Origin: an uncultured virus (IMG/VR IMGVR_UViG_3300021085_002396)
Taxonomy: Duplodnaviria > Heunggongvirae > Uroviricota > Caudoviricetes
Length of the DNA: 20,000 nt
Direction: 5' to 3' (one strand)
IMG/VR virus record: IMGVR_UViG_3300021085_002396
Each line of letters begins with the position of its first letter. Within the stretch, counting starts at the first letter, position 1. Position numbers and translations under genes: made by a program. Below are positions 5,034-19,450 of the stretch, one piece after another. Below the pieces are notes generated by a model. It was not told where the DNA came from. It did not search any database and saw nothing but the letters and a program-made list of their open reading frames with translations.

Positions 5034-5708
5034 TTATTTTTTAGTGGCTATTAATAAATAGTATCCTTCATCGAGTGTATCTTGAAATTGTATAAACTCA
5101 TAACTAAATCTATCTCCTAAATGTTCTTCTAGTCTTTTATGAGGTATAAACTTTTCATTTTCTAAAAAAGCTATTTGACCATTTTTAGTTAACCTGTCGT
5201 AAACTTCCTCACAAAAATGAGTATGAAATTTAAAATCTTCGTCTAATAAAATTAATCTAGATTGTCTCTCTTCTTCTGGTGTTTCTGTAGGAAACCATTC
5301 AGGGACAGTCTTAGCTAGATTATCAAATTGTTTTTCTTCTACTAAATGAGGAGGGTTAAGAACTATTAAATTAACTTTTGGACCTGTATATGATTTAAAA
5401 CCATCAGACACTTTATGACTAACTTTAAAATTAACTCTCTTTTTATTCTCCTTATAAGAATCTGCTACTTCAGGATTAATATCTAAAAAGTAAGCATTAT
5501 TAAGGTTTAACTTATATGCTAGGTAGTAGCCCATAAACCCTGGACCGCTACACATTTCCATTACGGATGTAGTAGCATTAAACTTATCGAGAACACCTGG
5601 TTTACTCAAAAACTTTTCTATAAAGAAAGGTCCTCCTCCATTATGTTTATTTACATGACTGAGCGATAAATCACACCCCAGTGGTCCATTGATGATGCAA
5701 GTTTCCAT
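5034..5708 (-). CDS. Class I SAM-dependent amino-methyltransferase (PrmC/MTS-like)
   Basis: Motif I EMCSGPGFMG, motif II LDIN, motif IV LNPPH (NPPY-like). Its start overlaps the queF stop (TAATG). Confidence 0.85.
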   Translation of the reverse strand: METCIINGPLGCDLSLSHVNKHNGGGPFFIEKFLSKPGVLDKFNATTSVMEMCSGPGFMGYYLAYKLNLNNAYFLDINPEVADSYKENKKRVNFKVSHKVSDGFKSYTGPKVNLIVLNPPHLVEEKQFDNLAKTVPEWFPTETPEEERQSRLILLDEDFKFHTHFCEEVYDRLTKNGQIAFLENEKFIPHKRLEEHLGDRFSYEFIQFQDTLDEGYYLLIATKK

Positions 5709-7515: not shown

Positions 7516-7546
7516 TAAAGATAAGAAATTTACTTCGTATTTCCTA
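7516..7546 (-). promoter_or_regulatory. Bacteroidota-type promoter upstream of kinase-nuclease-queF-methyltransferase
   Basis: TAGG(7546-7543)-N19-TATCTTTA(7523-7516). Confidence 0.65.
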
Positions 7547-8078
7547 ATAATTCTTTTAAAAATTCTAACCACAAATATAACGATCTATCCCTCATAGTTT
7601 CCCACATCTCCGTTTCTGTAATACCCCAAGAGTTAAAGAATATTTCCTTTAAGACTCTTCCTTCATCTACTCCTGCAGTAACTTTATGTATTACTGCTCC
7701 CATTACTTCATGTTTTGCTAGATATGCTTTAAGTTGAGGATCTTTACCTTTTAATTCAGGGTACCTAGTAATCAAACCTGGATGTCCATTGTATATATTA
7801 AACTTATCACAAATTTCAGGAGGCATAATTCTTAACCAACCATGTAATGTTATTGTAGCTTCCGGAAAATAAACTAAAAACTCTTCATAATCCTCTAACG
7901 TAGGTTTATTAGGTAATGTATAGAATCCTTTTTCTACAATTCTAGGATCTACAGTTCGAAGATCTTCCGGTCTATCGTTAGTATAAATTCTATCAGGCCA
8001 TCGACCTATTGATTCCGCTATGTCTGCTATTTCTTTACCAGTTTGGCTAAAGAACGTTATCCACATTTTGCTGTCCAT
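7530..8078 (-). CDS. dpdN: PurN-like formyltransferase; candidate preQ1 formyltransferase (DpdN-like)
   Basis: GAR transformylase catalytic N/H/D in YNGHPGL and IHKVTAGVDEG, plus LHGWLRIM. The fold is clear; the dpdN label rests on the dpdA-like/queF context. Confidence 0.75.
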   Translation of the reverse strand: MDSKMWITFFSQTGKEIADIAESIGRWPDRIYTNDRPEDLRTVDPRIVEKGFYTLPNKPTLEDYEEFLVYFPEATITLHGWLRIMPPEICDKFNIYNGHPGLITRYPELKGKDPQLKAYLAKHEVMGAVIHKVTAGVDEGRVLKEIFFNSWGITETEMWETMRDRSLYLWLEFLKELLGNTK

Positions 8079-8874
8079 TTGTAAACCATCTAAATTTTTG
8101 AATATTACTTTTAATATATGTTAATTGATCTTCATTAACTTCATAGTTAATTAATTCAAATAACTTCTGAGATTCTTTATCCCATAGTCCTTGATCTTTA
8201 TAGATTATTTCTTTTATTCCATGTACTACAGGATTAGATGTATCTAAAGAGTATATCCAATCATAGTTAGATTCTCTATATAACATAAACTCTTGAGGTA
8301 AACCACATCCTAATAAATGATGAGGCTTATCTTTATTAATAACATCGTTTTTAACTAAATCTCCAAGTAGCTTTGCACGTCCTAGCATCCAACTAACGTA
8401 CTTGTTAGGATGCGGACAAACCTCTTCATAATACGAATAATCAAAAGATATAGCAATCATATCTACAGGAGCTACTTTATCCATATAGTCGTAACAGCTA
8501 GCTATTGATTCATATGTTTTACCTTGTACTACTCCAATTGCTTTTCCCGGTAGACTATCTTTAGGATACTTTTCAAAAAACTTATGAGCTTGATCACAAG
8601 TCTTAAAACATTGCTCTAAAGCATCTGGAACTATATACCAAGTGGGTTTTAGTTCTTTTATCCAGTATGCAAATCTATCAGCATCGAATGCTTCTTCTAA
8701 TTCAAATATAGAATTATCTAAAATTACTTCTCTACCGTTTGCTAATGCATCTTTAAAGTGTTGAAGGTACTCTTCGTCTTCTTCAAATAAATGTACTAAA
8801 GCATAATCGTAGTCTGTAAATTTCTGTACAGTACTAAAAATACTCTTTGGTGATTCGTGTGCTATCTTAATCAA
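8047..8874 (-). CDS. dpdA: TGT-fold transglycosylase, DpdA-like
   Basis: TGT/DpdA-type motifs ILDNSIFE (cf. DSGGF), IVPD, GVVQG, HHLLG and SLDTSNP (cf. DS/DC). It lacks the TGT zinc-binding C-terminus and sits inside the que cluster. Confidence 0.75.
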   Translation of the reverse strand: MIKIAHESPKSIFSTVQKFTDYDYALVHLFEEDEEYLQHFKDALANGREVILDNSIFELEEAFDADRFAYWIKELKPTWYIVPDALEQCFKTCDQAHKFFEKYPKDSLPGKAIGVVQGKTYESIASCYDYMDKVAPVDMIAISFDYSYYEEVCPHPNKYVSWMLGRAKLLGDLVKNDVINKDKPHHLLGCGLPQEFMLYRESNYDWIYSLDTSNPVVHGIKEIIYKDQGLWDKESQKLFELINYEVNEDQLTYIKSNIQKFRWFTNGQQNVDNVL

Positions 8875-9587: not shown

Positions 9588-9924
9588 AATCGTCTTCTAA
9601 TCTTACTATATCGTCTTCTCCGAAATAGCTTCCTGTTTGTGTTTCTATAAATTGTGATACTTCCATAGTATCGTTAAATGCTCTGTGTTTAGCTCCTTGA
9701 GGAATAACTATTGAATCCCCAGGATATAACTCATGTAAAACATCATCTAAAATAACTGATAATTTACCTTTTACACAAGCCCAAACTTCTGATCTTTTAT
9801 GATGGTATTGATAAGATAATCTACCGCCTGGTTTTACAGTTATAATTTTAACCTTAGTTGTATCAGTATCTAATAATACATCATAACAACCCCAAGGTCT
9901 TTCATCGTGTTCTAATGCTTGCAT
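9577..9924 (-). CDS. Cupin, type II phosphomannose isomerase C-terminal-like
   Basis: RPWG, LSYQYHHKRSEVW, IPQGAKHR and GSYFGEDDIVRLEDDY. Confidence 0.9.
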   Translation of the reverse strand: MQALEHDERPWGCYDVLLDTDTTKVKIITVKPGGRLSYQYHHKRSEVWACVKGKLSVILDDVLHELYPGDSIVIPQGAKHRAFNDTMEVSQFIETQTGSYFGEDDIVRLEDDYER

Positions 9925-10625
9925 ATACTTGCTAATTCTATATTTTTATAAAACTCTGCTTTAGCTGAGTCTTCATTTAGAAATGCTCCAGTTAATTTAG
10001 CTGTTTGCATAGAAGCTCCTCCATGCTTAACTCCTCTACATGATACACATGCATGAGTTGCATTTACTTGAACTGCTACTCCTAAATTACCTTCACATAT
10101 CTTATCTACAGCATTATGTATAGCTACAGTTAGCTGTTCTTGAATAGCTCCTCTTCTGCCGAATTGCTCTACTATTCTATTTAATTTAGATAGTCCTACT
10201 ACCTTACCATCTTCTGATGCTATATAAGCAATACTTACTGTACCTCTAATAGCTTGATGGTGATGAGAGCACATAGACGTTACAGGTATATTACTTTCCT
10301 GTACAATACCGTCATAACCGTCAGATGGAAATGCTGTAATACGATCTAGTGGAGCATATCTTCCAGCCCATAAATCGTTAACGTATGCTTTTGCTACTCT
10401 CATTGGAGTATCTGAAGAGTTAGGATCATCAGCATAATCACATCCTAAGGCAGTTAGAAAATCTGCATATGCTTTTGCTGCATTATCTATAATAACTTGC
10501 TTCTCTTCAGCATTTAACCTTGCTTCAGGTCCTTCTTTCTCCTGTTTCTTTGCTAATTGACTTGATATTCCGTTAGCAAAACCGGCTCGAACTAATTCTG
10601 TTCCTTCTATAAACTTTTTAGGCAT
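9912..10625 (-). CDS. folE: GTP cyclohydrolase I
   Basis: TPMRVAK, SMCSHHH, GLSKLNR, QEQLT and HACVSCRGV. Confidence 0.97.
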   Translation of the reverse strand: MPKKFIEGTELVRAGFANGISSQLAKKQEKEGPEARLNAEEKQVIIDNAAKAYADFLTALGCDYADDPNSSDTPMRVAKAYVNDLWAGRYAPLDRITAFPSDGYDGIVQESNIPVTSMCSHHHQAIRGTVSIAYIASEDGKVVGLSKLNRIVEQFGRRGAIQEQLTVAIHNAVDKICEGNLGVAVQVNATHACVSCRGVKHGGASMQTAKLTGAFLNEDSAKAEFYKNIELASICKH

Positions 10626-10634
10626 AATATAACT

Positions 10635-10662
10635 TCTGTTTTTATTGAGGTTCTACGACTCA
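10635..10662 (-). ncRNA. preQ1 class I riboswitch-like aptamer upstream of folE
   Basis: UGAG-UCGUAGAAC-CUCA-AUAAAAA-CAGA: P1 stem, loop beginning with U and ending in C, A-rich tail, and pseudoknot pairs G-C and U-A. It ends 9 nt before the folE AUG. Confidence 0.8.
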
Positions 10663-10670
10663 TTGTTAAT

Positions 10671-10701
10671 ACAATATAGTAATTTATTTTTAATTATCCA
10701 A
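10671..10701 (-). promoter_or_regulatory. Bacteroidota-type promoter upstream of the riboswitch and folE
   Basis: TTGG(10701-10698)-N19-TATATTGT(10678-10671). Confidence 0.72.
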
Positions 10702-11088
10702 ATAATCTTGGATGGATTTTGCGTTTTCATTTTCCCATGGGTATACAATCCATTCAGGTCCTACTTCTTCAACATAGTAATTAGGTTTAAATACTGATTG
10801 TTTTTTATAGTGTAGAGATGCATACATAGGTTTTGGACATTCATCATAATACTTTTTAAATGTTTTTCCTGTGTCAGCTATATCATCAATAACTAATAAG
10901 TGAGGATAATGATTACTAATGTTGTTAAAATACTCAACTCCAAATCTATGAGAATATAAGATAGCTATTATTGCTCCTCCTCTTGGAATACCTGTTACTA
11001 ATCTAGCTTTCCCTCCTACTTGTTCATGTAACTTATCTAAAAGTACATTTATATCGTCCCAAGTTAAATATACTTTCTCTACTCCCAT
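10690..11088 (-). CDS. Type I phosphoribosyltransferase, xanthine/guanine PRT-like
   Basis: GIPRGG, PRPP-binding LVIDDIADTGKT and C-terminal WIVYPWE as in Gpt. Confidence 0.88.
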   Translation of the reverse strand: MGVEKVYLTWDDINVLLDKLHEQVGGKARLVTGIPRGGAIIAILYSHRFGVEYFNNISNHYPHLLVIDDIADTGKTFKKYYDECPKPMYASLHYKKQSVFKPNYYVEEVGPEWIVYPWENENAKSIQDYLDN

Positions 11089-11142
11089 GTATGATTTGTT
11101 GTCCAGTAATTATCTGGTAATTCTATTGTTGCGATAACTGAG

Positions 11143-11457
11143 TTATCCGTTCCACTTTTCTCCAAAAAATTCATAATTTAATTTAACATATTTATCTGTG
11201 CCATCTTTTTCTATGGCTGTTTCTTCATCTTCGTAGATTGCATCTACTGGACATTCCGGAAGACAAGCACCACAGTCGATACATTCTTCAGGATTAATAT
11301 AGAGCATTTTATTAACTAGCTCTTCTTTACTCATATCTGCTACTTCAGCTCCTGCTCCATCTACTTTAATAGGACCATGTATACAATCTACTGGGCAAAC
11401 TGCTACACAAGCTGTATCACAGGTACTAACGCAAGGATGTCCAATTATATAACTCAT
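11143..11457 (-). CDS. Dicluster ferredoxin (FdxA-like)
   Basis: CVSTCDTACVAVCPVDC and CIDCGACLPECPVDAI; start overlaps the queE stop (TAATG). Confidence 0.93.
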   Translation of the reverse strand: MSYIIGHPCVSTCDTACVAVCPVDCIHGPIKVDGAGAEVADMSKEELVNKMLYINPEECIDCGACLPECPVDAIYEDEETAIEKDGTDKYVKLNYEFFGEKWNG

Positions 11458-12236
11458 TAGACTTCTCTTTGATCTTCAAATGCAATAATATGAGGTCTCC
11501 AGGTCATTCTATAACCATTATCTCTAACCCAATCAAATAATATAGGGTAAGATTTATATAAAGCTTCTCTACTATCTCCAGCAGGCATAAACCATACTTT
11601 ATCTTTTGGAGCATTTAGTGTTTCAATACATTCCATAATTTCATTTAGAGCATTATTATCTTTACCGTCCCAAACAGGTTTAATATGGTAATCAGAATGA
11701 TAGTCCATACTCTGTTTTATAGTATCGTATTTTAATCTAAATTTATTATGTTGTTTAATCATTCTTTCGTCTGTAGTCGCTCCTTGAGGCGTAGATACTC
11801 CCAGTACAGGAACACTATTGGAGAACTTAGGACTAATAGAAAGCAAATTAATAGGATAATCAGTGGGTAGAAAATGGCTTCCTTCAGTCTCGATAGTAAT
11901 AAAGATATTTCTTTCATTAGCAAAGTGTGTTAATTCGTTTACAAGTTTTTTATGCATAGTAGGTGAACCTCCAGTTAACATCATTTCTGATATTTGAGGA
12001 TTCTTATCGTACATTTCTATAATATCGTTAAACGAATATTGACCTTTTTCTGGATGAATACTTGTATACCAAGAATCACACCAACCGCCTTCACCAAAAT
12101 AACATCTGTGAGTACATCCTGTAGTCCTAATTACTACCGTTGGGTATCCTGCTCTTGAGCCTTCTGATTGGACTGCAGTATATATTTCTACAATCGGTAA
12201 GTTTTTATCATAATCTTCTATTCTACCTAGGGACAT
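11457..12236 (-). CDS. queE: 7-carboxy-7-deazaguanine synthase (radical SAM)
   Basis: EIYTAVQSEG, GYPTVVIRTTGC, WCDS, TGGSP, IETEG and SISPK; the cluster motif is CX3CX7C. Confidence 0.93.
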   Translation of the reverse strand: MSLGRIEDYDKNLPIVEIYTAVQSEGSRAGYPTVVIRTTGCTHRCYFGEGGWCDSWYTSIHPEKGQYSFNDIIEMYDKNPQISEMMLTGGSPTMHKKLVNELTHFANERNIFITIETEGSHFLPTDYPINLLSISPKFSNSVPVLGVSTPQGATTDERMIKQHNKFRLKYDTIKQSMDYHSDYHIKPVWDGKDNNALNEIMECIETLNAPKDKVWFMPAGDSREALYKSYPILFDWVRDNGYRMTWRPHIIAFEDQREV

Positions 12237-12690
12237 ATAGTGCTGAGTTTTTACCGTGTTCTCTAAATTCTACTTTTATAACTTTTACTCTACCTTCAGT
12301 TTCCGTCTCTATGAACGGAGCTAGCTTTTCGTATATATATTGTGAGAACTTCTCTGCTCCTGTAGCAGGTACTACTCTAACCTGTGCTATACCCTTCTCA
12401 TCTAGCTTTAATGCTTCAGGTAAAAATGGATCGTCTTCTGCTATCAAGTATGTATGATCAAACATATAATCCATCCATGCTTTAGGTGATTTTCCGTCAA
12501 TTAAGGTTTTAGCTCTTTTCATTCCTCCAAAGTCCCAGACCCAATTACGATTATCTAATTCTCCTTCAAACCAGAGTTTAAATGATACTCCATAACCGTG
12601 AAGAAATCTACAGTGAGTTGTTTCGGCTTTCCATTGACGAAAGACGGTACTAAATCCATCGAATACTTTTGTTGATTGATATTTTGCCAT
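12223..12690 (-). CDS. queD: 6-carboxytetrahydropterin synthase (T-fold PTPS family)
   Basis: HCRFLHGY, WVWDFG, FDHTYL, GAEKF and EHGKNSA; adjacent to queE. Confidence 0.9.
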   Translation of the reverse strand: MAKYQSTKVFDGFSTVFRQWKAETTHCRFLHGYGVSFKLWFEGELDNRNWVWDFGGMKRAKTLIDGKSPKAWMDYMFDHTYLIAEDDPFLPEALKLDEKGIAQVRVVPATGAEKFSQYIYEKLAPFIETETEGRVKVIKVEFREHGKNSALYVPR

Positions 12691-12700
12691 AACTTATTTT

Positions 12701-12973
12701 TTATACTAATTCTTCGATTATACCTACTATTTCAGATAATATAAGAAGAATAGCTGAGGTTACCAAATTAAATGGTATAAAACAGTATCCTAGTATTCTA
12801 ATACCGGATTTAATAAACGATACAATCTGGTGCTTCTTTGCATCAGGGTAGTTAATCGATTCATCAGATGTAATTTTGTTTTGATGTATACGGTTCGCTA
12901 AGTATTGCTCTTCCGTCATTCTGCGAGACTCTACATCATAGAGATCATTCTCGACTTCCTTTAAGTCCATCAT
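12701..12973 (-). CDS. Small protein with a hydrophobic C-terminus (probable membrane protein)
   Basis: C-terminus IVSFIKSGIRILGYCFIPFNLVTSAILLILSEIVGII. Start reassigned to ATG 12973 because the GTG at 13003 lies inside the RNA aptamer. Confidence 0.7.
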   Translation of the reverse strand: MMDLKEVENDLYDVESRRMTEEQYLANRIHQNKITSDESINYPDAKKHQIVSFIKSGIRILGYCFIPFNLVTSAILLILSEIVGIIEELV

Positions 12974-12976
12974 TTT

Positions 12977-13004
12977 CGTGTTTTTTAAGTGGTGCTGTGA
13001 CACT
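12977..13004 (-). ncRNA. preQ1 class I riboswitch-like aptamer heading the membrane protein-queD-queE-fdx operon
   Basis: AGUG-UCACAGCAC-CACU-UAAAAAA-CACG has the same 4-9-4-7-4 layout as the folE copy, with compensatory changes. It ends 3 nt before the AUG. Confidence 0.78.
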
Positions 13005-13020
13005 GTCGTCTAATTATACT

Positions 13021-13051
13021 ATAATATAAGAAAGTTATTTCTAATTTCCAA
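13021..13051 (-). promoter_or_regulatory. Bacteroidota-type promoter upstream of the riboswitch and queD operon
   Basis: TTGG(13051-13048)-N19-TATATTAT(13028-13021). Confidence 0.72.
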
Positions 13052-13684
13052 CTAGATTATATAATTTTCTTCTAACCCATACCTCCAAAATCCAAATGCA
13101 TCTCCGGTAAGATTTAAATACCAATAAATATGTTTATCTATATATCTCTCAACCTTTAATAGCCTCCTCTTATATAGTATTCTACCTAGCATTCCATCTT
13201 CACCATATCTTGTATTATCTGGTATTTCTTTCCATGCTTCTTTTGCTATATCTGTTTTAATAACACATTTGCAGTCTGTAGGTGCTACTATATCGAAACC
13301 GTACATATTCTCCCATCTTTCCGCGTACCTCTTTCTAAAATCACATACTAACATTTTGCCGGGGATACTTTCGTTAGGTTTTCCATCAAATTCTTGTACC
13401 ATTCTATACGATACAGAGTCTGGTTGGAATTCTAATTCTTTCATTATATGATGTATACCTAAAGGGTGAATCCAATCATCATCATCCCACTGTACGCTGT
13501 AAGGCATAGTAGACATTTCATAAAGAAGTCTTCTTTTCTTACCTAAAGGCATTTCTTTTTGATCTGAAAGGTATATTATTTCTACTTTATCGCCAAAAGG
13601 TTCTGCTTGTCTTTTTAGCTCAGCTAATAGAGGATTAAAAACATGAGAACGAGAAACAGTTGTTGGAATCTGTATAGATAACAT
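13052..13684 (-). CDS. GT-A fold (family 2-like) glycosyltransferase
   Basis: LSIQIPT...R, LGKKR, DxD-type WDDDDW and GED. Confidence 0.85.
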   Translation of the reverse strand: MLSIQIPTTVSRSHVFNPLLAELKRQAEPFGDKVEIIYLSDQKEMPLGKKRRLLYEMSTMPYSVQWDDDDWIHPLGIHHIMKELEFQPDSVSYRMVQEFDGKPNESIPGKMLVCDFRKRYAERWENMYGFDIVAPTDCKCVIKTDIAKEAWKEIPDNTRYGEDGMLGRILYKRRLLKVERYIDKHIYWYLNLTGDAFGFWRYGLEENYII

Positions 13685-15291
13685 TAAAAGTCTAAGTTTG
13701 TAGTAGCAGTAAAACTTCCAGAGAATGTTAATGGTGAATTTTGACCGTACTTATTATGTAACATTTTAACTGAATCAGCCTGTAGTGAGTAACTACCGGA
13801 TAAATGTTCTGTAGGATTATAAATTACTTCACTAGCATTTGCAAAGACTACTTCTTGCATTTTAGCTGGTGTTAATCCTGGGGATGACTGTGCATATAGA
13901 GCTACTACACCGCATACTTGTGGAGCTGCCATTGATGTACCATTTAATATAGATTCCCAATACGCACCGTTATGAGTATAAGAACCTCTTGCGTATCCTG
14001 AGGTATTACTTACTGATGAAAGTATACGTGAACCGGGTGCATAAATGTTTACTCCAGGTCCGTGATTTGAAAAAGAAGCTCTTTTATCTATGTAGTTACT
14101 TCCAGATTGTACTTGATCTTCATCAATACATCCAACCATAAAAGCTTTATCAGAATAAGGTGATGAACCTCTAGAATAATATCTCCATTGAGTATTTTTA
14201 ATCAATGCTTGATTATTATAATCAGCTCCTGAAGGTACATCTATCTTATGATTACTATTTCCTGAAGCAATTATTACGTGGATGCCTTCTTCTACCATTT
14301 CTTCAATATCGGTATCTACAGAAGTTATTCTTACTGGGTGTTTCCATGTGCCTAACAAACCTATACTAGGCGCAAATTCGTTTAGCCCAAACGCTTTAAG
14401 TTCTCCTCCAAAGGAGTTTTGTATGACGGTAGAACTATATGACGTTCCTCTATAATTTACTGCGTATGCTGTAGAGCCTCCTGTAAATTTTGCAGAATAC
14501 CCCCAAGACATATTGACTACTGTCGGTCTTTTATACCCGGTAGCAGGGTCAATAGCCTTTTGTCTGTGGAATAATTTAATTGCATCTAATGCATAACTAT
14601 CATCTATTCCAGTAGCACCGTCACCAGAGCCTTCTAAACCTCTTATTTTTAAGGAGTATATTTTTGCATTCTTAGCCCATCCAAAGGTTTTTCCTGCTGC
14701 TATACCTGCACAATGAGTACCGTGACCATCATTATCTCTTTCATGGTTAGCATTTTGAGTAAATCCTGTATGAATAGAACCCCAATCTATAAATGTATAC
14801 CTGGATACTCCATGCTGATCTTCCCATTCTGGATGATCAGTTTGTACTCCGGAATCAACAATAACTACGTCTACTCCTTTTCCATCTAAAGTATAATTAT
14901 AAGTTTCATCTATAATTTCATTACCGTTATAGGTATTATCTTTAGTATTGCATCTTAATAGTCCCCAGTTTTTATCTCCTGAAGATAATGAAGGGCTTCT
15001 ATTATACGATCCGCTAATTATAGCTCCGTGTTCTTTTACTATATCATTTCTCTGTTCAGGTGGTATTTCAATATCTAAAACACTAGGATGTTCTAAGAGG
15101 TCATCTTTTTCAGCTTCTGTCAACCAGTAGTGTGTTTGGCGATAACTACCTAATCTCGGATTGGCTATTTCCACTTGCCTATTAGGTACATTATCTTTTT
15201 CTGTAATTTCTTTTAGATCTTCCCAAAATAAATCATAGTCTACTTCTTTATGAAGGATAATATTATATTCTCTCTCATTAAATTCTGGCAT
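13684..15291 (-). CDS. S8 subtilisin-like serine protease
   Basis: Catalytic triad in VVIVDSG, HGTHCAG and GTSMAAPQV; NMSWG; oxyanion ASGN; N-terminal propeptide-like region. Confidence 0.95.
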   Translation of the reverse strand: MPEFNEREYNIILHKEVDYDLFWEDLKEITEKDNVPNRQVEIANPRLGSYRQTHYWLTEAEKDDLLEHPSVLDIEIPPEQRNDIVKEHGAIISGSYNRSPSLSSGDKNWGLLRCNTKDNTYNGNEIIDETYNYTLDGKGVDVVIVDSGVQTDHPEWEDQHGVSRYTFIDWGSIHTGFTQNANHERDNDGHGTHCAGIAAGKTFGWAKNAKIYSLKIRGLEGSGDGATGIDDSYALDAIKLFHRQKAIDPATGYKRPTVVNMSWGYSAKFTGGSTAYAVNYRGTSYSSTVIQNSFGGELKAFGLNEFAPSIGLLGTWKHPVRITSVDTDIEEMVEEGIHVIIASGNSNHKIDVPSGADYNNQALIKNTQWRYYSRGSSPYSDKAFMVGCIDEDQVQSGSNYIDKRASFSNHGPGVNIYAPGSRILSSVSNTSGYARGSYTHNGAYWESILNGTSMAAPQVCGVVALYAQSSPGLTPAKMQEVVFANASEVIYNPTEHLSGSYSLQADSVKMLHNKYGQNSPLTFSGSFTATTNLDF

Positions 15292-15302
15292 ACAAATTTA
15301 TT

Positions 15303-16886
15303 TTATAGTGATCCTATAGCTGCTTGAAATTCTGCGTATGAACCTGTAATAAATGTTTTAAGCTTTTCTATACTAATATAGTCTGATGCAATACTTGCTG
15401 ATGTTTGAATTACTGTTGCTGAGCTCGCACTTAATGCTGTTCTTTGTGTATGAGCTGAGCTAGATAAGGCTGTATCTCCTGCTACATATTCACTTCTTAA
15501 TGCAGTTGCTGCTGAACTACTTAACGCACTATCTGCTGCTATATATTCTGTTCTTATTGCAGATGCTTCAGAACCAGAATTAGCTAATTTTATCCAATTA
15601 CCTCCGTGAGCAAAATACCCTAATCCAGTAGCATGTACATGTGCGAACATTCCATGGTAGTCAGCTGCAGTTGGTAGATCTCCTTCTGTAGCATAAACAT
15701 TAGAAAATTGTATCTTTTTACCTGGTAAGTCTACTATTCCTCCTGAATGAGAAACGTTTGATGAAATCACACTGTCTATTGCTGTATCTAATGCTCCTGA
15801 GATTGCTGTTCTTTGTGTATGAGCTGAAGCTGATATTGTAGCAGTTGTTTCTGCACTTTCTAAAGTAACAATTCTAGTATTTAATGAAGAACTCAAAGAA
15901 GTGTCACCAGCTAAAAATTCTGTTCTTAATGCTGATGCATTAGAAGATGAAAATGCTGTATGTGTTGCTGTAGGTAATTTAGTACCTATAGTAGTTGCTA
16001 TAGAAGCTGAAAATGTTGCATCATCTCCTAAAGCTGCTGCTAATTCATTTAACGTATCTAAAGTTCCTGGTGAGCTATCTACTAATGCTGCTACTTTAGC
16101 ATTAATGTAGGTGTTTTGTGATGCACTTAACGCACTATCTGCTGCTATATATTCAGCTCTTAAAGCACTTGCGCTTGAACCACTTAATTCGTTTCTTCTT
16201 ACATCTGCAGAAGTAGATAATGCTGTATTAGCACTTGATGCTAATCCTTTAATTGCTTCTCTCTGTATGTGTGCAGAACCAGATAATACTATATCTTCAG
16301 ATACTCTTTGAGAATGAGCTGAACTACTTAAAGCAGTTATGTTTGCGTCTAAGTGAGTATCTGCTGAAGCTGAAAGTAATGATATTTCAGAATCTAAATG
16401 ACTATCAGTTGAAGCTGATAAAGCACTAATATTGGCATCTAAATGTGCATCTACTGAAGCACTTAATATTGTGTCTAAAGCTACTCTATGAATATGTGCT
16501 GATTGTGAGTTAGCAATAATAGCATCTTCTGCAGCATCTAATGAAGCTGATACGTTAGCATAGTTTCCTAATGCTAAAGAATTATGCATTGTTACTGATC
16601 CTGAAAAGCTATGTGTGTCTGTTGCATCATCCCCGAAAGCTGTAGAACCAGACTTATATAATACGGTAGATTGAGTTAATTCTGTAATAAATGCTCTTGC
16701 TTTTACATCACCGGTAACTGTTAAATCACCTCCAACTGTTTGACTACCGGTAACATGCAAACTACCGCTAAGTTTTATTGACCCTGTGAGTGGAGAACCT
16801 ATTCCATTCTGCACTAATTGACCATCGTCAACTTGCACTAACTTATAGTAAGTGTCTTTTATTGTATTTCCTGTTAAAGTAGCCAT
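15303..16886 (-). CDS. Ser/Ala-rich repetitive fibre-like or virion structural protein
   Basis: Fibre-type motif PGTLDTLNELAAALGDD, a YHGMFAHVH module, and repeats SSSAHTQR and ALRxEYIAADSALS. Confidence 0.7.
   Translation of the reverse strand: MATLTGNTIKDTYYKLVQVDDGQLVQNGIGSPLTGSIKLSGSLHVTGSQTVGGDLTVTGDVKARAFITELTQSTVLYKSGSTAFGDDATDTHSFSGSVTMHNSLALGNYANVSASLDAAEDAIIANSQSAHIHRVALDTILSASVDAHLDANISALSASTDSHLDSEISLLSASADTHLDANITALSSSAHSQRVSEDIVLSGSAHIQREAIKGLASSANTALSTSADVRRNELSGSSASALRAEYIAADSALSASQNTYINAKVAALVDSSPGTLDTLNELAAALGDDATFSASIATTIGTKLPTATHTAFSSSNASALRTEFLAGDTSLSSSLNTRIVTLESAETTATISASAHTQRTAISGALDTAIDSVISSNVSHSGGIVDLPGKKIQFSNVYATEGDLPTAADYHGMFAHVHATGLGYFAHGGNWIKLANSGSEASAIRTEYIAADSALSSSAATALRSEYVAGDTALSSSAHTQRTALSASSATVIQTSASIASDYISIEKLKTFITGSYAEFQAAIGSL
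15435..16154. repeat. Exact intragenic direct repeats in the fibre-like gene
   Basis: 30 bp acttaacgcactatctgctgctatatattc at 15519-15548 and 16125-16154; 24 bp tgctgttctttgtgtatgagctga at 15435-15458 and 15804-15827. Confidence 0.9.
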
Positions 16887-16896
16887 GAATTATGTT

Positions 16897-16908
16897 TATT
16901 TATAAATA
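16897..16908 (-). promoter_or_regulatory. Possible late-type promoter (palindromic TATTTATAAATA)
   Basis: Contains TATAAATA (T4 late consensus) 10 nt upstream of the fibre-like gene start; the AT-rich background weakens the call. Confidence 0.4.
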
Positions 16909-16911
16909 GTA

Positions 16912-17025
16912 CTAGAAATTCTTATAAACAAAAGGGTCTCTCTTTTTAAGTTCCTTTAACCTCTCTTGAAATTCTTTTTCTTTCTTTTCTTTTAAAATCT
17001 TCTCTTTTTTTTCTTTGTCTGTCAT
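16912..17025 (-). CDS. Small Lys/Glu-rich protein (37 aa) not in the ORF track
   Basis: MTDKEKKEKILKEKKEKEFQERLKELKKRDPFVYKNF; ATGA overlap with the carbamoyltransferase stop. Confidence 0.7.
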   Translation of the reverse strand: MTDKEKKEKILKEKKEKEFQERLKELKKRDPFVYKNF

Positions 17026-18689
17026 AATTTCTGTATAAGATGATTATTGATAACTAAAAAATCTATATTAGATTTCATAAATCTTGATATAGCTTGTTCT
17101 GGGGACATTGTTATAGTTTGATCTTTTAAATTAAACGAAGTATTAAGTAGTATAGGAGATCCAGTTAACCTCTTAATTTCATCTAATAATAAATAGTAAC
17201 GTTCGTTTTGTTCTGGTGTTACTGTATGTACCCTTGCTGAATTGTCAATATGAACAGCTGAAGGTATCCTTTTAGTCTTAGCTTGAACTACTATGTTCAT
17301 ATATGGAACTTCTTCTTTTAGATCAAAATATTTACTTGCTTCATCAGCTTTTACAGAAGGAGCAAAAGGTCTAAACCCTTCTCTTTTCTTTATAACATAA
17401 TTTAATTTTTCTCTCATCTTAGGATCTTGAGGAGCTGCTAATATAGACCTATTACCTAATGCTCTTGCTCCAAATTCCATCCTACCTTGAAACCATGCTA
17501 CTATTTTCTGTTTAGAAAGCAACTCAGCAGTTTTTTTAACTATTAAATCATCAGACAGTCTAAACGAAGTTATAAAATCAGGCCATTTTTCTTGAAAGTC
17601 ATTAATAGCCTTGTGTATTTCGATATCTTTATAGTCTGGTCCTAAATACGGATTACTATTATCCTTACGTTCTCCTTTATAGTGGTGTAAACATGCACCT
17701 ATAGCTGATCCTGCATCTGATGGAGAAAAAGGGATATGTACTGAGTCAAAATATTTATAAGCTAAAGCATTTGCTACTCCATTATAGGCACATCCTCCTC
17801 CTAAACATAAATTAGGTGACTTCGACATATTTTTTGCAGTTATCAGCAATTTAGTAAATTGATATTCATACCATTTCTGTAAAGCTGCTGCTAAATCTTT
17901 GTGTTCCTGAGTAACTGGTTCTTCTGGAAATCTAGGAAGTATGCCAAGTGCCTTAAATAAGTTTTTATTAAACATTACTTTATCAGAGTATTCCCAAGAG
18001 AATGGTTTAGTATTTAATCTAAACTGATTAGATGTATTTTCTACTAAACTCATTAACTTACCTAAATATACATCTGGATTACCGTATGGTGCTAATCCCA
18101 TAATTTTATATTCTCCTTCATTAGGTTTAAACCCTAAATACGCAGTAATAGTAGAGTATACTAATCCTAAAGAATTAGGATATTTAATAGATTGCATTTT
18201 CTGTACTTTGCCGTTTCTACTTCTATATACTGCTGTGGTATCCCATTCACCTACTCCGTCGACTGTTAGTATTGCAGGATTTTCATAGGGACTTGTATGT
18301 AGGCTAAAAGCTGCATGAGAAGTATGATGGTCGGTGTATACTATTTCACCTTTAAACCCACCTCTTCTTAAAATAGTTTCAGGATTATATTTTTTATAAT
18401 CTCTTAAATATCTATACCTTAACAATAACGTTTTAAAGAAATGTTTATTAAAAGTAGTAAGTACTCTATCTTTTTTTAATTCAGGATTTTCATACCAACA
18501 GACTTGATCTACTGCTTTAAGAGTTGTTCTAGTATACCTTAAACACCAATTAATAGCATTAAAAGGAAATGAACTGTCATGCTTAATTCCGGTAAATCTT
18601 TCTTCTTCTGCTGCTGCAATAACTTTACCGTCTACTACTAAACAAGCAGCTGAGTCATGGTAAAAAGCAGATATTCCTAACTGTATCAT
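17022..18689 (-). CDS. Carbamoyltransferase, NodU/CmcH/TobZ family
   Basis: HDSAA, EEERF, HHTSHA, DGVGE, GEYKIMGLAPYG, GRMEFGARALGNRS, KREGFRPFAP and NTSFN. Confidence 0.96.
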   Translation of the reverse strand: MIQLGISAFYHDSAACLVVDGKVIAAAEEERFTGIKHDSSFPFNAINWCLRYTRTTLKAVDQVCWYENPELKKDRVLTTFNKHFFKTLLLRYRYLRDYKKYNPETILRRGGFKGEIVYTDHHTSHAAFSLHTSPYENPAILTVDGVGEWDTTAVYRSRNGKVQKMQSIKYPNSLGLVYSTITAYLGFKPNEGEYKIMGLAPYGNPDVYLGKLMSLVENTSNQFRLNTKPFSWEYSDKVMFNKNLFKALGILPRFPEEPVTQEHKDLAAALQKWYEYQFTKLLITAKNMSKSPNLCLGGGCAYNGVANALAYKYFDSVHIPFSPSDAGSAIGACLHHYKGERKDNSNPYLGPDYKDIEIHKAINDFQEKWPDFITSFRLSDDLIVKKTAELLSKQKIVAWFQGRMEFGARALGNRSILAAPQDPKMREKLNYVIKKREGFRPFAPSVKADEASKYFDLKEEVPYMNIVVQAKTKRIPSAVHIDNSARVHTVTPEQNERYYLLLDEIKRLTGSPILLNTSFNLKDQTITMSPEQAISRFMKSNIDFLVINNHLIQKL

Positions 18690-19360
18690 ATTATGTTGTA
18701 TCCTCTTTTAGGTTCCTCTGGGAGTTTTATACTACTGTTAAAGTAATTCTTTGAGATAAATTTGGCAAATTGCCAATGTCCTTTTATACTAAAATGATCA
18801 TCAGCAGTACTACCATTAGATGCTACTCTTGAAGTTTCAAACATTTCGCCTTTTTGAATATTAGCAAAAGAGAGCTTATACGGTAAATGTATGTATTCTA
18901 CTTTTATTGATTTAAAAAATATACCGAAATCAGAGAATATACTAGAAAAGTACTTACCAAAAGGATTTAGTTTCTTATATCTATGGTCGTATATAAAGTT
19001 AAATATACTTTTTATTTCATCTTGATTATTAAAATAATTTTTGTCAAAAGGAACTCCAAATTCAAGTGCATCTACTAATTTACCATTCGTAACAGAAACA
19101 ATTTCATCCTTATATTCATTATAGACCTCTATTCTATCCGGTACAGTTTCTAGTAAAAATACTTTATCACCTTCTTTAATATTCGGCAATGCTTTAATAA
19201 CTTGATTAATTATAAACTGTGGACTTGCTCCTCCTTGAGCATAATTTTTATACTTTAAATCTAATCCTTTAGCAATTAATCTAGGCCAAATACTAGAGGT
19301 TTTATACAAAGTGTGACCACATGTAAAACTATCTCCGAAAAAATGTGCCGTTGATTTCAT
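18686..19360 (-). CDS. SGNH/GDSL hydrolase-like protein
   Basis: FGDSFT, NYAQGGAS and DHFSIKGH. Start reassigned to ATG 19360 (MKSTAH) because the longer ORF overlaps the tRNA. Confidence 0.75.
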   Translation of the reverse strand: MKSTAHFFGDSFTCGHTLYKTSSIWPRLIAKGLDLKYKNYAQGGASPQFIINQVIKALPNIKEGDKVFLLETVPDRIEVYNEYKDEIVSVTNGKLVDALEFGVPFDKNYFNNQDEIKSIFNFIYDHRYKKLNPFGKYFSSIFSDFGIFFKSIKVEYIHLPYKLSFANIQKGEMFETSRVASNGSTADDHFSIKGHWQFAKFISKNYFNSSIKLPEEPKRGYNII

Positions 19361-19376
19361 ATTACTGAAGTGTTTG

Positions 19377-19450
19377 TGGAGAATATCGGAGTCGAACCGA
19401 TGACCTCCTGCGTGCAAGGCAGGCGCTCTAGCCAGCTGAGCTAATCCCCC
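19377..19450 (-). tRNA. tRNA-Ala (anticodon UGC), CCA not encoded
   Basis: GGGGGATTAGCTCAGCTGGCTAGAGCGCCTGCCTTGCACGCAGGAGGTCATCGGTTCGACTCCGATATTCTCCA: cloverleaf, G3-U70 identity pair, TTCGA T-loop, discriminator A followed by CAA. Confidence 0.97.

Follow-up and report, generated by a model that had tools for sequence, protein, structure and literature searches.

The DNA analysed here (the window) is a 20,000-nt stretch of the uncultured virus record IMGVR_UViG_3300021085_002396 (Caudoviricetes), which carries two short RNA elements on its minus strand, one in the leader of folE and one in the leader of a small open reading frame (ORF) followed by queD and queE. Both elements are real and conserved, and the feature is most likely a compact, diverged preQ1-I-like riboswitch with predicted ligand binding. 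In its full form, which we consider fairly probable, the proposal is that a 7-deazaguanine base is sensed by a compact preQ1-I-like element of 26-28 nt, which acts as a translational OFF switch and whose A-tract serves as an initiation determinant for the Shine-Dalgarno (SD)-blind ribosomes of Bacteroidota. Four observations carry this proposal, namely the conservation of the elements, the covariation of their first stem (P1), their association with genes of 7-deazaguanine synthesis and the identity of their invariant bases. Through its predicted sensing, the element probably throttles the modified-guanine pathway of the phage.

Two elements of the same layout

Two minus-strand elements with a shared layout had been proposed in a first-pass annotation of the window, and both are found at the claimed sites with the sequences described. 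They differ as claimed there, specifically, at the first P1 pair (U-A in element 1, A-U in element 2), at the third P1 pair (A-U and U-A) and at loop position 4 and tail position 4 (U/A and C/G). Scores below refer to R1, a covariance model of the phage motif built from relatives.

10635..10662, minus strand: aptamer-like element 1 (folE leader), UGAG-UCGUAGAAC-CUCA-AUAAAAA-CAGA; R1 score 49.7 bits; orthologous copies precede FolE in related contigs
Parts of element 1: P1 5' strand UGAG 10662-10659; loop UCGUAGAAC 10658-10650; P1 3' strand CUCA 10649-10646; A-tract (loop L3) 10645-10639; tail CAGA 10638-10635
12977..13004, minus strand: aptamer-like element 2 (small ORF-queD-queE leader), AGUG-UCACAGCAC-CACU-UAAAAAA-CACG; R1 score 46.9 bits
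Parts of element 2: P1 5' strand AGUG 13004-13001; loop UCACAGCAC 13000-12992; P1 3' strand CACU 12991-12988; L3 12987-12981; tail CACG 12980-12977

The ATG of folE (10625) lies 9 nt past element 1 and that of the small ORF (12973) 3 nt past element 2. Running R1 on the 113-kb genome to which the window belongs returned high scores at these two elements only, the next match reaching 14.2 bits. A hairpin-plus-tail scan of the whole 113-kb viral record gave four matches, both elements and two others with A/T-rich stems and loops unlike the motif. Within the window, the pattern was found twice against 0.15 expected occurrences, a circular count, as these same two sites had supplied the pattern.

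Stem covariation and invariant bases

The compensatory P1 changes that had been read from the two window copies were borne out in related leaders: among 54 distinct sequences, 99.5% of the 216 P1 stem cells pair, and three of the four P1 pairs change on both sides (AU/UA/GC, GC/AU and UA/AU). The P1 covariation score was reached by none of 500 shuffles, slid registers allow 31-58% of the cells to pair, and RNAalifold gives the same P1 helix. The G closing P1 is present in all 54 distinct sequences.

Invariant bases were identified from 45 distinct variants. Loop bases U1, A5, G6, A8 and C9 and tail bases C1 and A2 never change, while the bases that follow vary freely. The A-tract followed by C is found in 45/45 variants, and L3 is 5-9 nt long, with 7 nt in 33 of the 45. 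Because variation is free after the tail CA, the functional unit comprises about 26-28 nt.

Distribution among related phages

A FolE search yielded 80 viral loci. In the majority, the folE leader has the element, placed after a TATATT box and ahead of the ATG, with the stems UGAG/CUCA, UGUG/CACA, GGAG/CUCC, GGUG/CACC, AGUG/CACU and UAAG/CUUA. Some relatives keep the box before folE and have no element. Five leaders of this kind (L033, L037, L040, L057 and L062) show a cgTATATT box without an aptamer, three of which (L033, L037 and L062) belong to contigs that keep a queD-type copy; the copy at folE thus seems to have undergone repeated gain or loss. In a clade formed by L083 (141 and 3465), L082 and L086, the folE leader holds a queD-type aptamer (AGUG ... 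CAC ... CACU) near-identical to the small-ORF copy, which suggests duplication or conversion between both leaders. Two loci assigned to bacterial metagenome-assembled genomes (MAGs), L176 (a Verrucomicrobiales MAG) and L141 (an 'uncultured bacterium' MAG), contain a phage folE with an aptamer (53.6 and 27.5 bits, respectively) and are probably phage contigs swept into bins.

Since the 54-sequence set had been collected with the inner P1 pairs required, two scans (A and B) were run with a pattern that fixes loop and tail only and leaves the stem free. Scan A gave 47 loci. All four P1 pairs form in 34 of them, all of which precede FolE, and the other 13 have at most two pairs and precede none of nine BLAST reference proteins (pathway proteins and neighbouring window proteins). 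Scan B matched 98 stretches, 80 of which were fetched and analysed, with all four P1 pairs present at 78/80 loci. By placement, 64 lie before the small ORF, 7 before FolE, 3 before QueE and 2 before QueD (76/80 in total; small ORF, QueD and QueE together 69/80). Two of these 76 are at contig ends without a readable ORF, leaving 74 with a confirmed downstream gene, and one match with 4/4 and one with 1/4 pairs look like chance. Overall, a stem-forming copy in the leader of a pathway gene or at a contig end is present on at least 110 viral contigs (34 from scan A and 76 from scan B), and stem-forming copies lie 2-13 nt upstream of the ATG of FolE, QueD, QueE or the small ORF. This placement agrees with that of preQ1-I riboswitches of all types, which are located in leaders of genes for queuosine or 7-deazaguanine synthesis or transport.

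R1 found two sites in each of the complete relatives G001 and G003; G002 and phage immuto have a single site apiece, which in immuto is the folE copy. QueC is encoded in 5/5 motif-bearing records and in 2/5 motif-less records; the motif therefore implies the pathway, and not the reverse. Both QueC and the motif are missing from the dDG phage phi13:1. An R1 match in this Cellulophaga phage (25.5 bits) was rejected as an ordinary terminator, a GC hairpin followed by a T-run, so that phiST-type phages are without the motif, in agreement with their folE and queD leaders. R1 returned nothing at E≤0.01 over 151 Flavobacteriaceae genomes, a search that is little informative as 42 of the thousands of first-look candidates per genome were scored.

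Comparison with preQ1-I riboswitches

As set out in PMC11625349, class I type II preQ1 riboswitches are defined by the dinucleotide AC just ahead of the P1 3' strand, and this C pairs with the ligand. In the Thermoanaerobacter tengcongensis aptamer, as described in PMC7641330, the methylamine is faced by G5, the base closing P1, contacts to the ligand come from U6 and A29, C15 serves as specificity base, and the canonical pairs G11-C30 and C9-G33 flank A10-A32 and G8-A31. The phage invariants match G5, U6, A10, G11, A14, C15, C16, A29, C30 and A31, which are pocket and ceiling residues in the account of PMC7641330. The type II AC specificity motif, in the definition of PMC11625349, is present in 45/45 variants, and the pocket residues of this type are likewise in place: in all 45 variants a U follows the P1 5' strand and a C comes after the final A of L3, in addition to the closing G noted above. 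The UU motif of types I and III is absent: UC follows P1 in 43/45 variants, and AC precedes the 3' strand in all of them. Apart from one missing base pair, element 2 (AGUG/CACU, UAAAAAAC) is similar to the Rfam PreQ1 consensus (P1 aGuGG/CCaCu, tail AUAAAAAAC).

With the type II preQ1-I riboswitches of T. tengcongensis and Bacillus subtilis (RF00522), the phage elements share the hairpin, the A-rich tail and the tail C in a layout like that of an H-type pseudoknot, as well as the U after the P1 5' strand, the AC before the 3' strand, the G closing P1 and the loop AG facing the tail CA. Both are tied to genes for preQ0/preQ1 synthesis, and the T. tengcongensis switch is described as exerting translational control beside the AUG (PMC7641330, PMC11625349). 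They differ in that the phage P1 has 4 bp instead of 5, the loop 9 nt instead of the 12 of the Rfam consensus and the second loop (L2) 3 nt where T. tengcongensis has U12-C15, with L3 mostly 7 nt. Further, phage tails consist of CA plus variable bases and hold neither CUAAGG nor an SD sequence, so an SD-occluding platform is absent. Lastly, phage copies sit before folE and queD-queE and serve DNA rather than tRNA modification. Among the targets of preQ1-I switches, folE is not known to be a usual one.

At L183:1501-1545 (minus strand), a Flavobacteriaceae genome holds a canonical PreQ1 switch of type I (50 bits), which stops 1 nt short of the ATG of a Vut_1/YhhQ-like transporter and keeps a CUAAG tail although the phylum does not use SD pairing. 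This type I switch (G039, 50 bits) comes from the host family of the phage and, like the phage elements, has an aptamer that abuts the start codon without a separate expression platform. It differs in its UC specificity motif, UU after P1, 5-bp P1, 12-nt loop and CUAAG tail, is undetected by R1 and controls salvage, not synthesis. Type III preQ1-I riboswitches, compared here by description only, are represented by an Escherichia coli 36-mer before yhhQ and resemble the phage elements in small size, AC motif, binding of one ligand and repression of translation (as reported in PMC10622847). By the same description they differ in the UU after P1, a pyrimidine-rich loop and a fully buried SD sequence that reads the ligand, and type III is stated to be almost confined to Gammaproteobacteria (PMC11625349). 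The E. coli K-12 yhhQ leader gave no RF00522 match at E≤1 and none from R1; the published 36-mer is from another E. coli record.

An aptamer for a different guanine-like molecule (guanine, 2'-deoxyguanosine, GTP, 7-carboxy-7-deazaguanine (CDG) or a formylated or methylated preQ1 base) seems unlikely to us. A guanine-like Watson-Crick face of any kind would pair with the conserved C, GTP is consumed by the folE product, and the pocket may differ because L2 and P1 fall short of their lengths in known preQ1-I aptamers; in addition, the end product in phage immuto, where all G is reported to be replaced, is fdPreQ1 and not preQ1 (PMC10516641). Against these points stand the invariant G closing P1, which PMC7641330 ties to the preQ1 methylamine, and the presence of QueC in all five motif-bearing records. 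Moreover, type II aptamers already accept both preQ0 and preQ1, with a 17-fold difference given in PMC10622847.

Promoter-like boxes and transcripts

Both elements lie directly behind promoter-like boxes:

10673..10678, minus strand: TATATT box, promoter-like, 10 nt upstream of element 1 P1; a weak sigma-70-type match kept in the leaders of relatives, including aptamer-less ones
13013..13028, minus strand: TATATT (13028-13023) and TATAAT (13018-13013) boxes, promoter-like, 8-18 nt upstream of element 2 P1

Promoters had been annotated just upstream of both elements; what is seen there are consensus-like TATATT/TATAAT boxes, which are putative promoters. A census of promoters with a loose pattern was uninformative (39 matches compared with 25 in shuffles). 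A conserved AGAC box (for example tAGACgac, aAGACaat) is found 4-5 nt upstream of P1 in many queD-type copies (13005-13012, minus strand, in the window) and may mark a transcript start or an extra contact. RNA-library contigs include both elements, one piece bridging element 1 (10623-10820). Metatranscriptome contigs stop at 13003, one base inside the 5' end of element 2, at 12975 and at 12965, and none covers 13082-13238. These ends near element 2 give a weak hint only because they are contig ends and DNA carry-over is possible.

Two other readings of the leaders were rejected. A coding role for element 2, as part of a GTG-initiated ORF (12701-13003) running through it, is contradicted by the in-frame UAG stop that the UCGUAG loop supplies in most relatives. 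Neither hairpin resembles a terminator, as no U-run follows and 3-13 nt are left before the AUG; a terminator scan returned no minus-strand site in 10400-13300.

A third possibility is that the elements form a constitutive, non-sensing leader, a 5' hairpin that stabilises the mRNA or fixes its translation rate. Their position at or near putative 5' ends, right after promoter-like boxes, the weakness of the hairpin and the relatives that manage without an element at folE would all suit such a role. A stabilising hairpin would not need five invariant loop bases, a fixed-length A-tract and an invariant CA, and elsewhere in the genome, promoter-like boxes of this type have no element behind them. 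We consequently regard a constitutive leader as very unlikely.

Evidence against the riboswitch assignment and a possible protein operator

Several results weigh against assigning the elements to the preQ1-I riboswitches. Infernal with the Rfam PreQ1 model, put forward in the first-pass annotation as a check, gave no match to either element: RF00522 found none at its gathering threshold (39 bits) and none at E≤10 in two 181-nt slices, and the elements were absent among the 25 scored candidates of the genome. The PreQ1-II and PreQ1-III models were silent on the elements as well, and RF00522 did detect its positive control, a Flavobacteriaceae locus (G039), at 50 bits. In the reverse direction, R1 with filters off missed the 50-bit Flavobacteriaceae PreQ1 switch, giving three chance-level matches elsewhere in L183 (best 13.3 bits), and at a weaker PreQ1 candidate it matched the tail only (14.1 bits). 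Of the likeness to class I preQ1 aptamers that had been drawn for the two window copies, the coincidence of the invariants with type II ligand-recognition residues as given in PMC7641330 and PMC11625349 holds, and the silence of RF00522 stands against it.

The second helix (P2) of the proposed pseudoknot is a further point. At its second pair (loop 4/tail 4), 31/45 variants pair, a value equalled in 56/1000 shuffles; a loop-4 C faces G in 7/7 cases, 14 variants are unpaired, and the UCGUAG loops occur with a CACG tail too. The G-C ceiling pair (loop G6-tail C1) is uninformative because it never varies. The loop-tail pairing claimed from the window copies is thus present in most variants, with weak covariation. 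In addition, P1 alone is predicted at -1.5 kcal/mol, no better than shuffles, and the predicted minimum for element 2 is another register, GUGU/GCAC with a 4-nt loop (-2.4 kcal/mol; 12991-13003, minus strand). The RNA-library contigs may contain DNA. Finally, the motif is not general among QueC-encoding phages (2/5 motif-less records have QueC). Control of the first steps of the pathway, as proposed earlier, agrees with the elements preceding folE and queD-queE; queC, queF and dpdA have no preceding copy and fall outside it.

The GUGU/GCAC fold is also open to UCGUAGCAC relatives, would pair the specificity C and cannot be formed by the AAC-type folE copies; it may represent a competing apo-state or be incidental. 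Among matches that were discarded, a scan with all 4227 Rfam families gave chance-level matches around the elements (snoR9, viral pseudoknots), a weak RF00522 match at G000:20971-21004 (17.4 bits) is chance-like sequence and a 24.6-bit RF00522 match in G005 lies inside a 492-aa ORF.

The weak P2 covariation and the silent Rfam riboswitch model bring a further explanation into consideration, in which a translational repressor from phage or host binds the hairpin and tail as its RNA operator, the conserved loop bases being read by a protein rather than a metabolite. RegA and gene 32 autoregulation in phage T4 provide the model for this type of control. A conserved loop, a covarying stem and adjacency to the AUG fit operators as well as aptamers. 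Three observations nevertheless make an operator improbable in our judgement: the invariants coincide one-for-one with the ligand-pocket residues that PMC7641330 describes for the known aptamer, the A-tract and CA are kept at fixed spacing as in an H-type pseudoknot, and the element is confined to the genes of one metabolic pathway, with no candidate regulator gene identified alongside.

Proposed mechanism of translational control

For the preferred riboswitch reading, we infer an H-type-pseudoknot aptamer on the class I type II plan, in which P1 spans 4 bp and the loop 9 nt. Three bases, the U that opens the loop, the C that ends it and the final A of the A-tract, would make up the pocket for a 7-deazaguanine base (preQ1 or preQ0). 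The minor groove of P1 would accommodate the A-tract, and a pair between the tail C and the loop G would give the pocket its ceiling. Since only 2-13 nt, with no terminator among them, separate the end of the aptamer from the start codon, control would be exerted at translation initiation, which ligand binding is predicted to switch OFF.

Flavobacterium johnsoniae mRNAs lack SD sequences, and initiation is described as being tuned by structure and by A at -3, -6, -12 and -13 (PMC6847099). The A-tract of element 2 occupies -8 to -13 before the small ORF, and the tail C of queD-type copies lies 4-7 nt before the AUG, 6 nt in most. Because the ribosomes of the Bacteroidota hosts ignore the SD and favour unstructured A-rich leaders, the ligand-bound fold would hide the A-tract, not an SD sequence. 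In its ligand-locked state, the pseudoknot would come to lie in the 30S footprint. The phage would in this manner limit FolE, QueD and QueE, the first three steps toward the base that replaces G in its DNA.

A bolder version of this model, which we put forward tentatively and with slightly more doubt than belief, takes the element as the smallest natural riboswitch aptamer seen (26-28 nt), an SD-free offshoot of preQ1-I whose A-tract doubles as ribosome landing site and whose two tuned copies meter the host GTP diverted to the G-replacing base.

Gene context

The genes of the pathway and their neighbours in the window are:

9912..10625, minus strand: folE (GTP cyclohydrolase I), directly behind element 1; PF01227, E 5e-42
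12701..12973, minus strand: small ORF of 90 aa, the gene next to element 2; assigned to neither a Pfam nor a PHROG family
12223..12690, minus strand: queD (6-carboxytetrahydropterin synthase family); PF01242, E 2e-13
11457..12236, minus strand: queE (radical SAM 7-carboxy-7-deazaguanine synthase); PF04055; the syntenic immuto gene is annotated QueE
11143..11457, minus strand: 4Fe-4S ferredoxin-like gene of the same operon; Fer4 families
10690..11088, minus strand: phosphoribosyltransferase-like gene, the last before element 1; PF00156 below cut-off; phrog_8995
8047..8874, minus strand: dpdA (DNA guanine transglycosylase), further downstream; 72% identity to the DpdA annotated in phage immuto
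5708..6658, minus strand: queF (preQ0 to preQ1 reductase); PF14819, PF14489
19593..20000, minus strand: queC, cut by the window end, without an aptamer; PF06508 at G000:171-875, 129.7 bits

The domain matches agree with the earlier naming of folE and queD-queE as the downstream genes, the latter two lying behind the family-less 90-aa ORF. This small ORF has a hydrophobic C-terminus, and its Atlas clusters are viral only. Homologues of 74-105 aa follow the element in relatives, occupying the same place in 64/80 scan B loci. The phage gene set comprises FolE, QueD, QueE, QueC, QueF, DpdA and a DpdN-like formyltransferase. R1 gave no third site in the genome of the window, for example before queC.

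An MTS-type methyltransferase (PF05175) is encoded beside queF and a PurN-like formyltransferase beside dpdA (5034-5708 and 7530-8078, minus strand). The phage may therefore both formylate and methylate preQ1; the published DpdM is of a different family (DUF3109). About 6 kb separate queC from element 2 (13052-19450, minus strand), encoding a tRNA-Ala(UGC), a GDSL-like hydrolase, a NodU/CmcH-type carbamoyltransferase, a 527-aa unknown protein, a subtilase and a glycosyltransferase. In the relative G001, queC is located only about 400 nt upstream of the element, and the region 13052-19450 of the window may represent an extra tailoring module or an insertion.

Gene set and synteny are those of the phage 7-deazaguanine DNA-modification clusters described for immuto and phiST in PMC10516641, in keeping with the DpdA identity listed above. 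The RNA element is the new part: the main text of that paper contains neither 'riboswitch' nor 'regulat' (PMC10516641).

Significance

A full-text literature search returned no paper that ties a riboswitch to phage 7-deazaguanine or DpdA clusters. Phage Dp-1 may carry a preQ1-type switch. The idea is directly testable, as the cultured pair of phage immuto and Flavobacterium sp. LMO8 carries a folE copy of the motif.

If the predicted ligand binding holds true, the element would lower the size limit known for natural metabolite-sensing RNA and provide structural biology with a minimal preQ1 pocket, built from a 4-bp P1 and a 3-nt L2. It would also point to a blind spot of the current Rfam model, since RF00522 was run on both window copies and neither scored. 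For the phages themselves, it would mean that a virus steers its own DNA hypermodification, rather than tRNA queuosine, by a riboswitch, and it would represent translational control by a riboswitch in a phylum without Shine-Dalgarno pairing.

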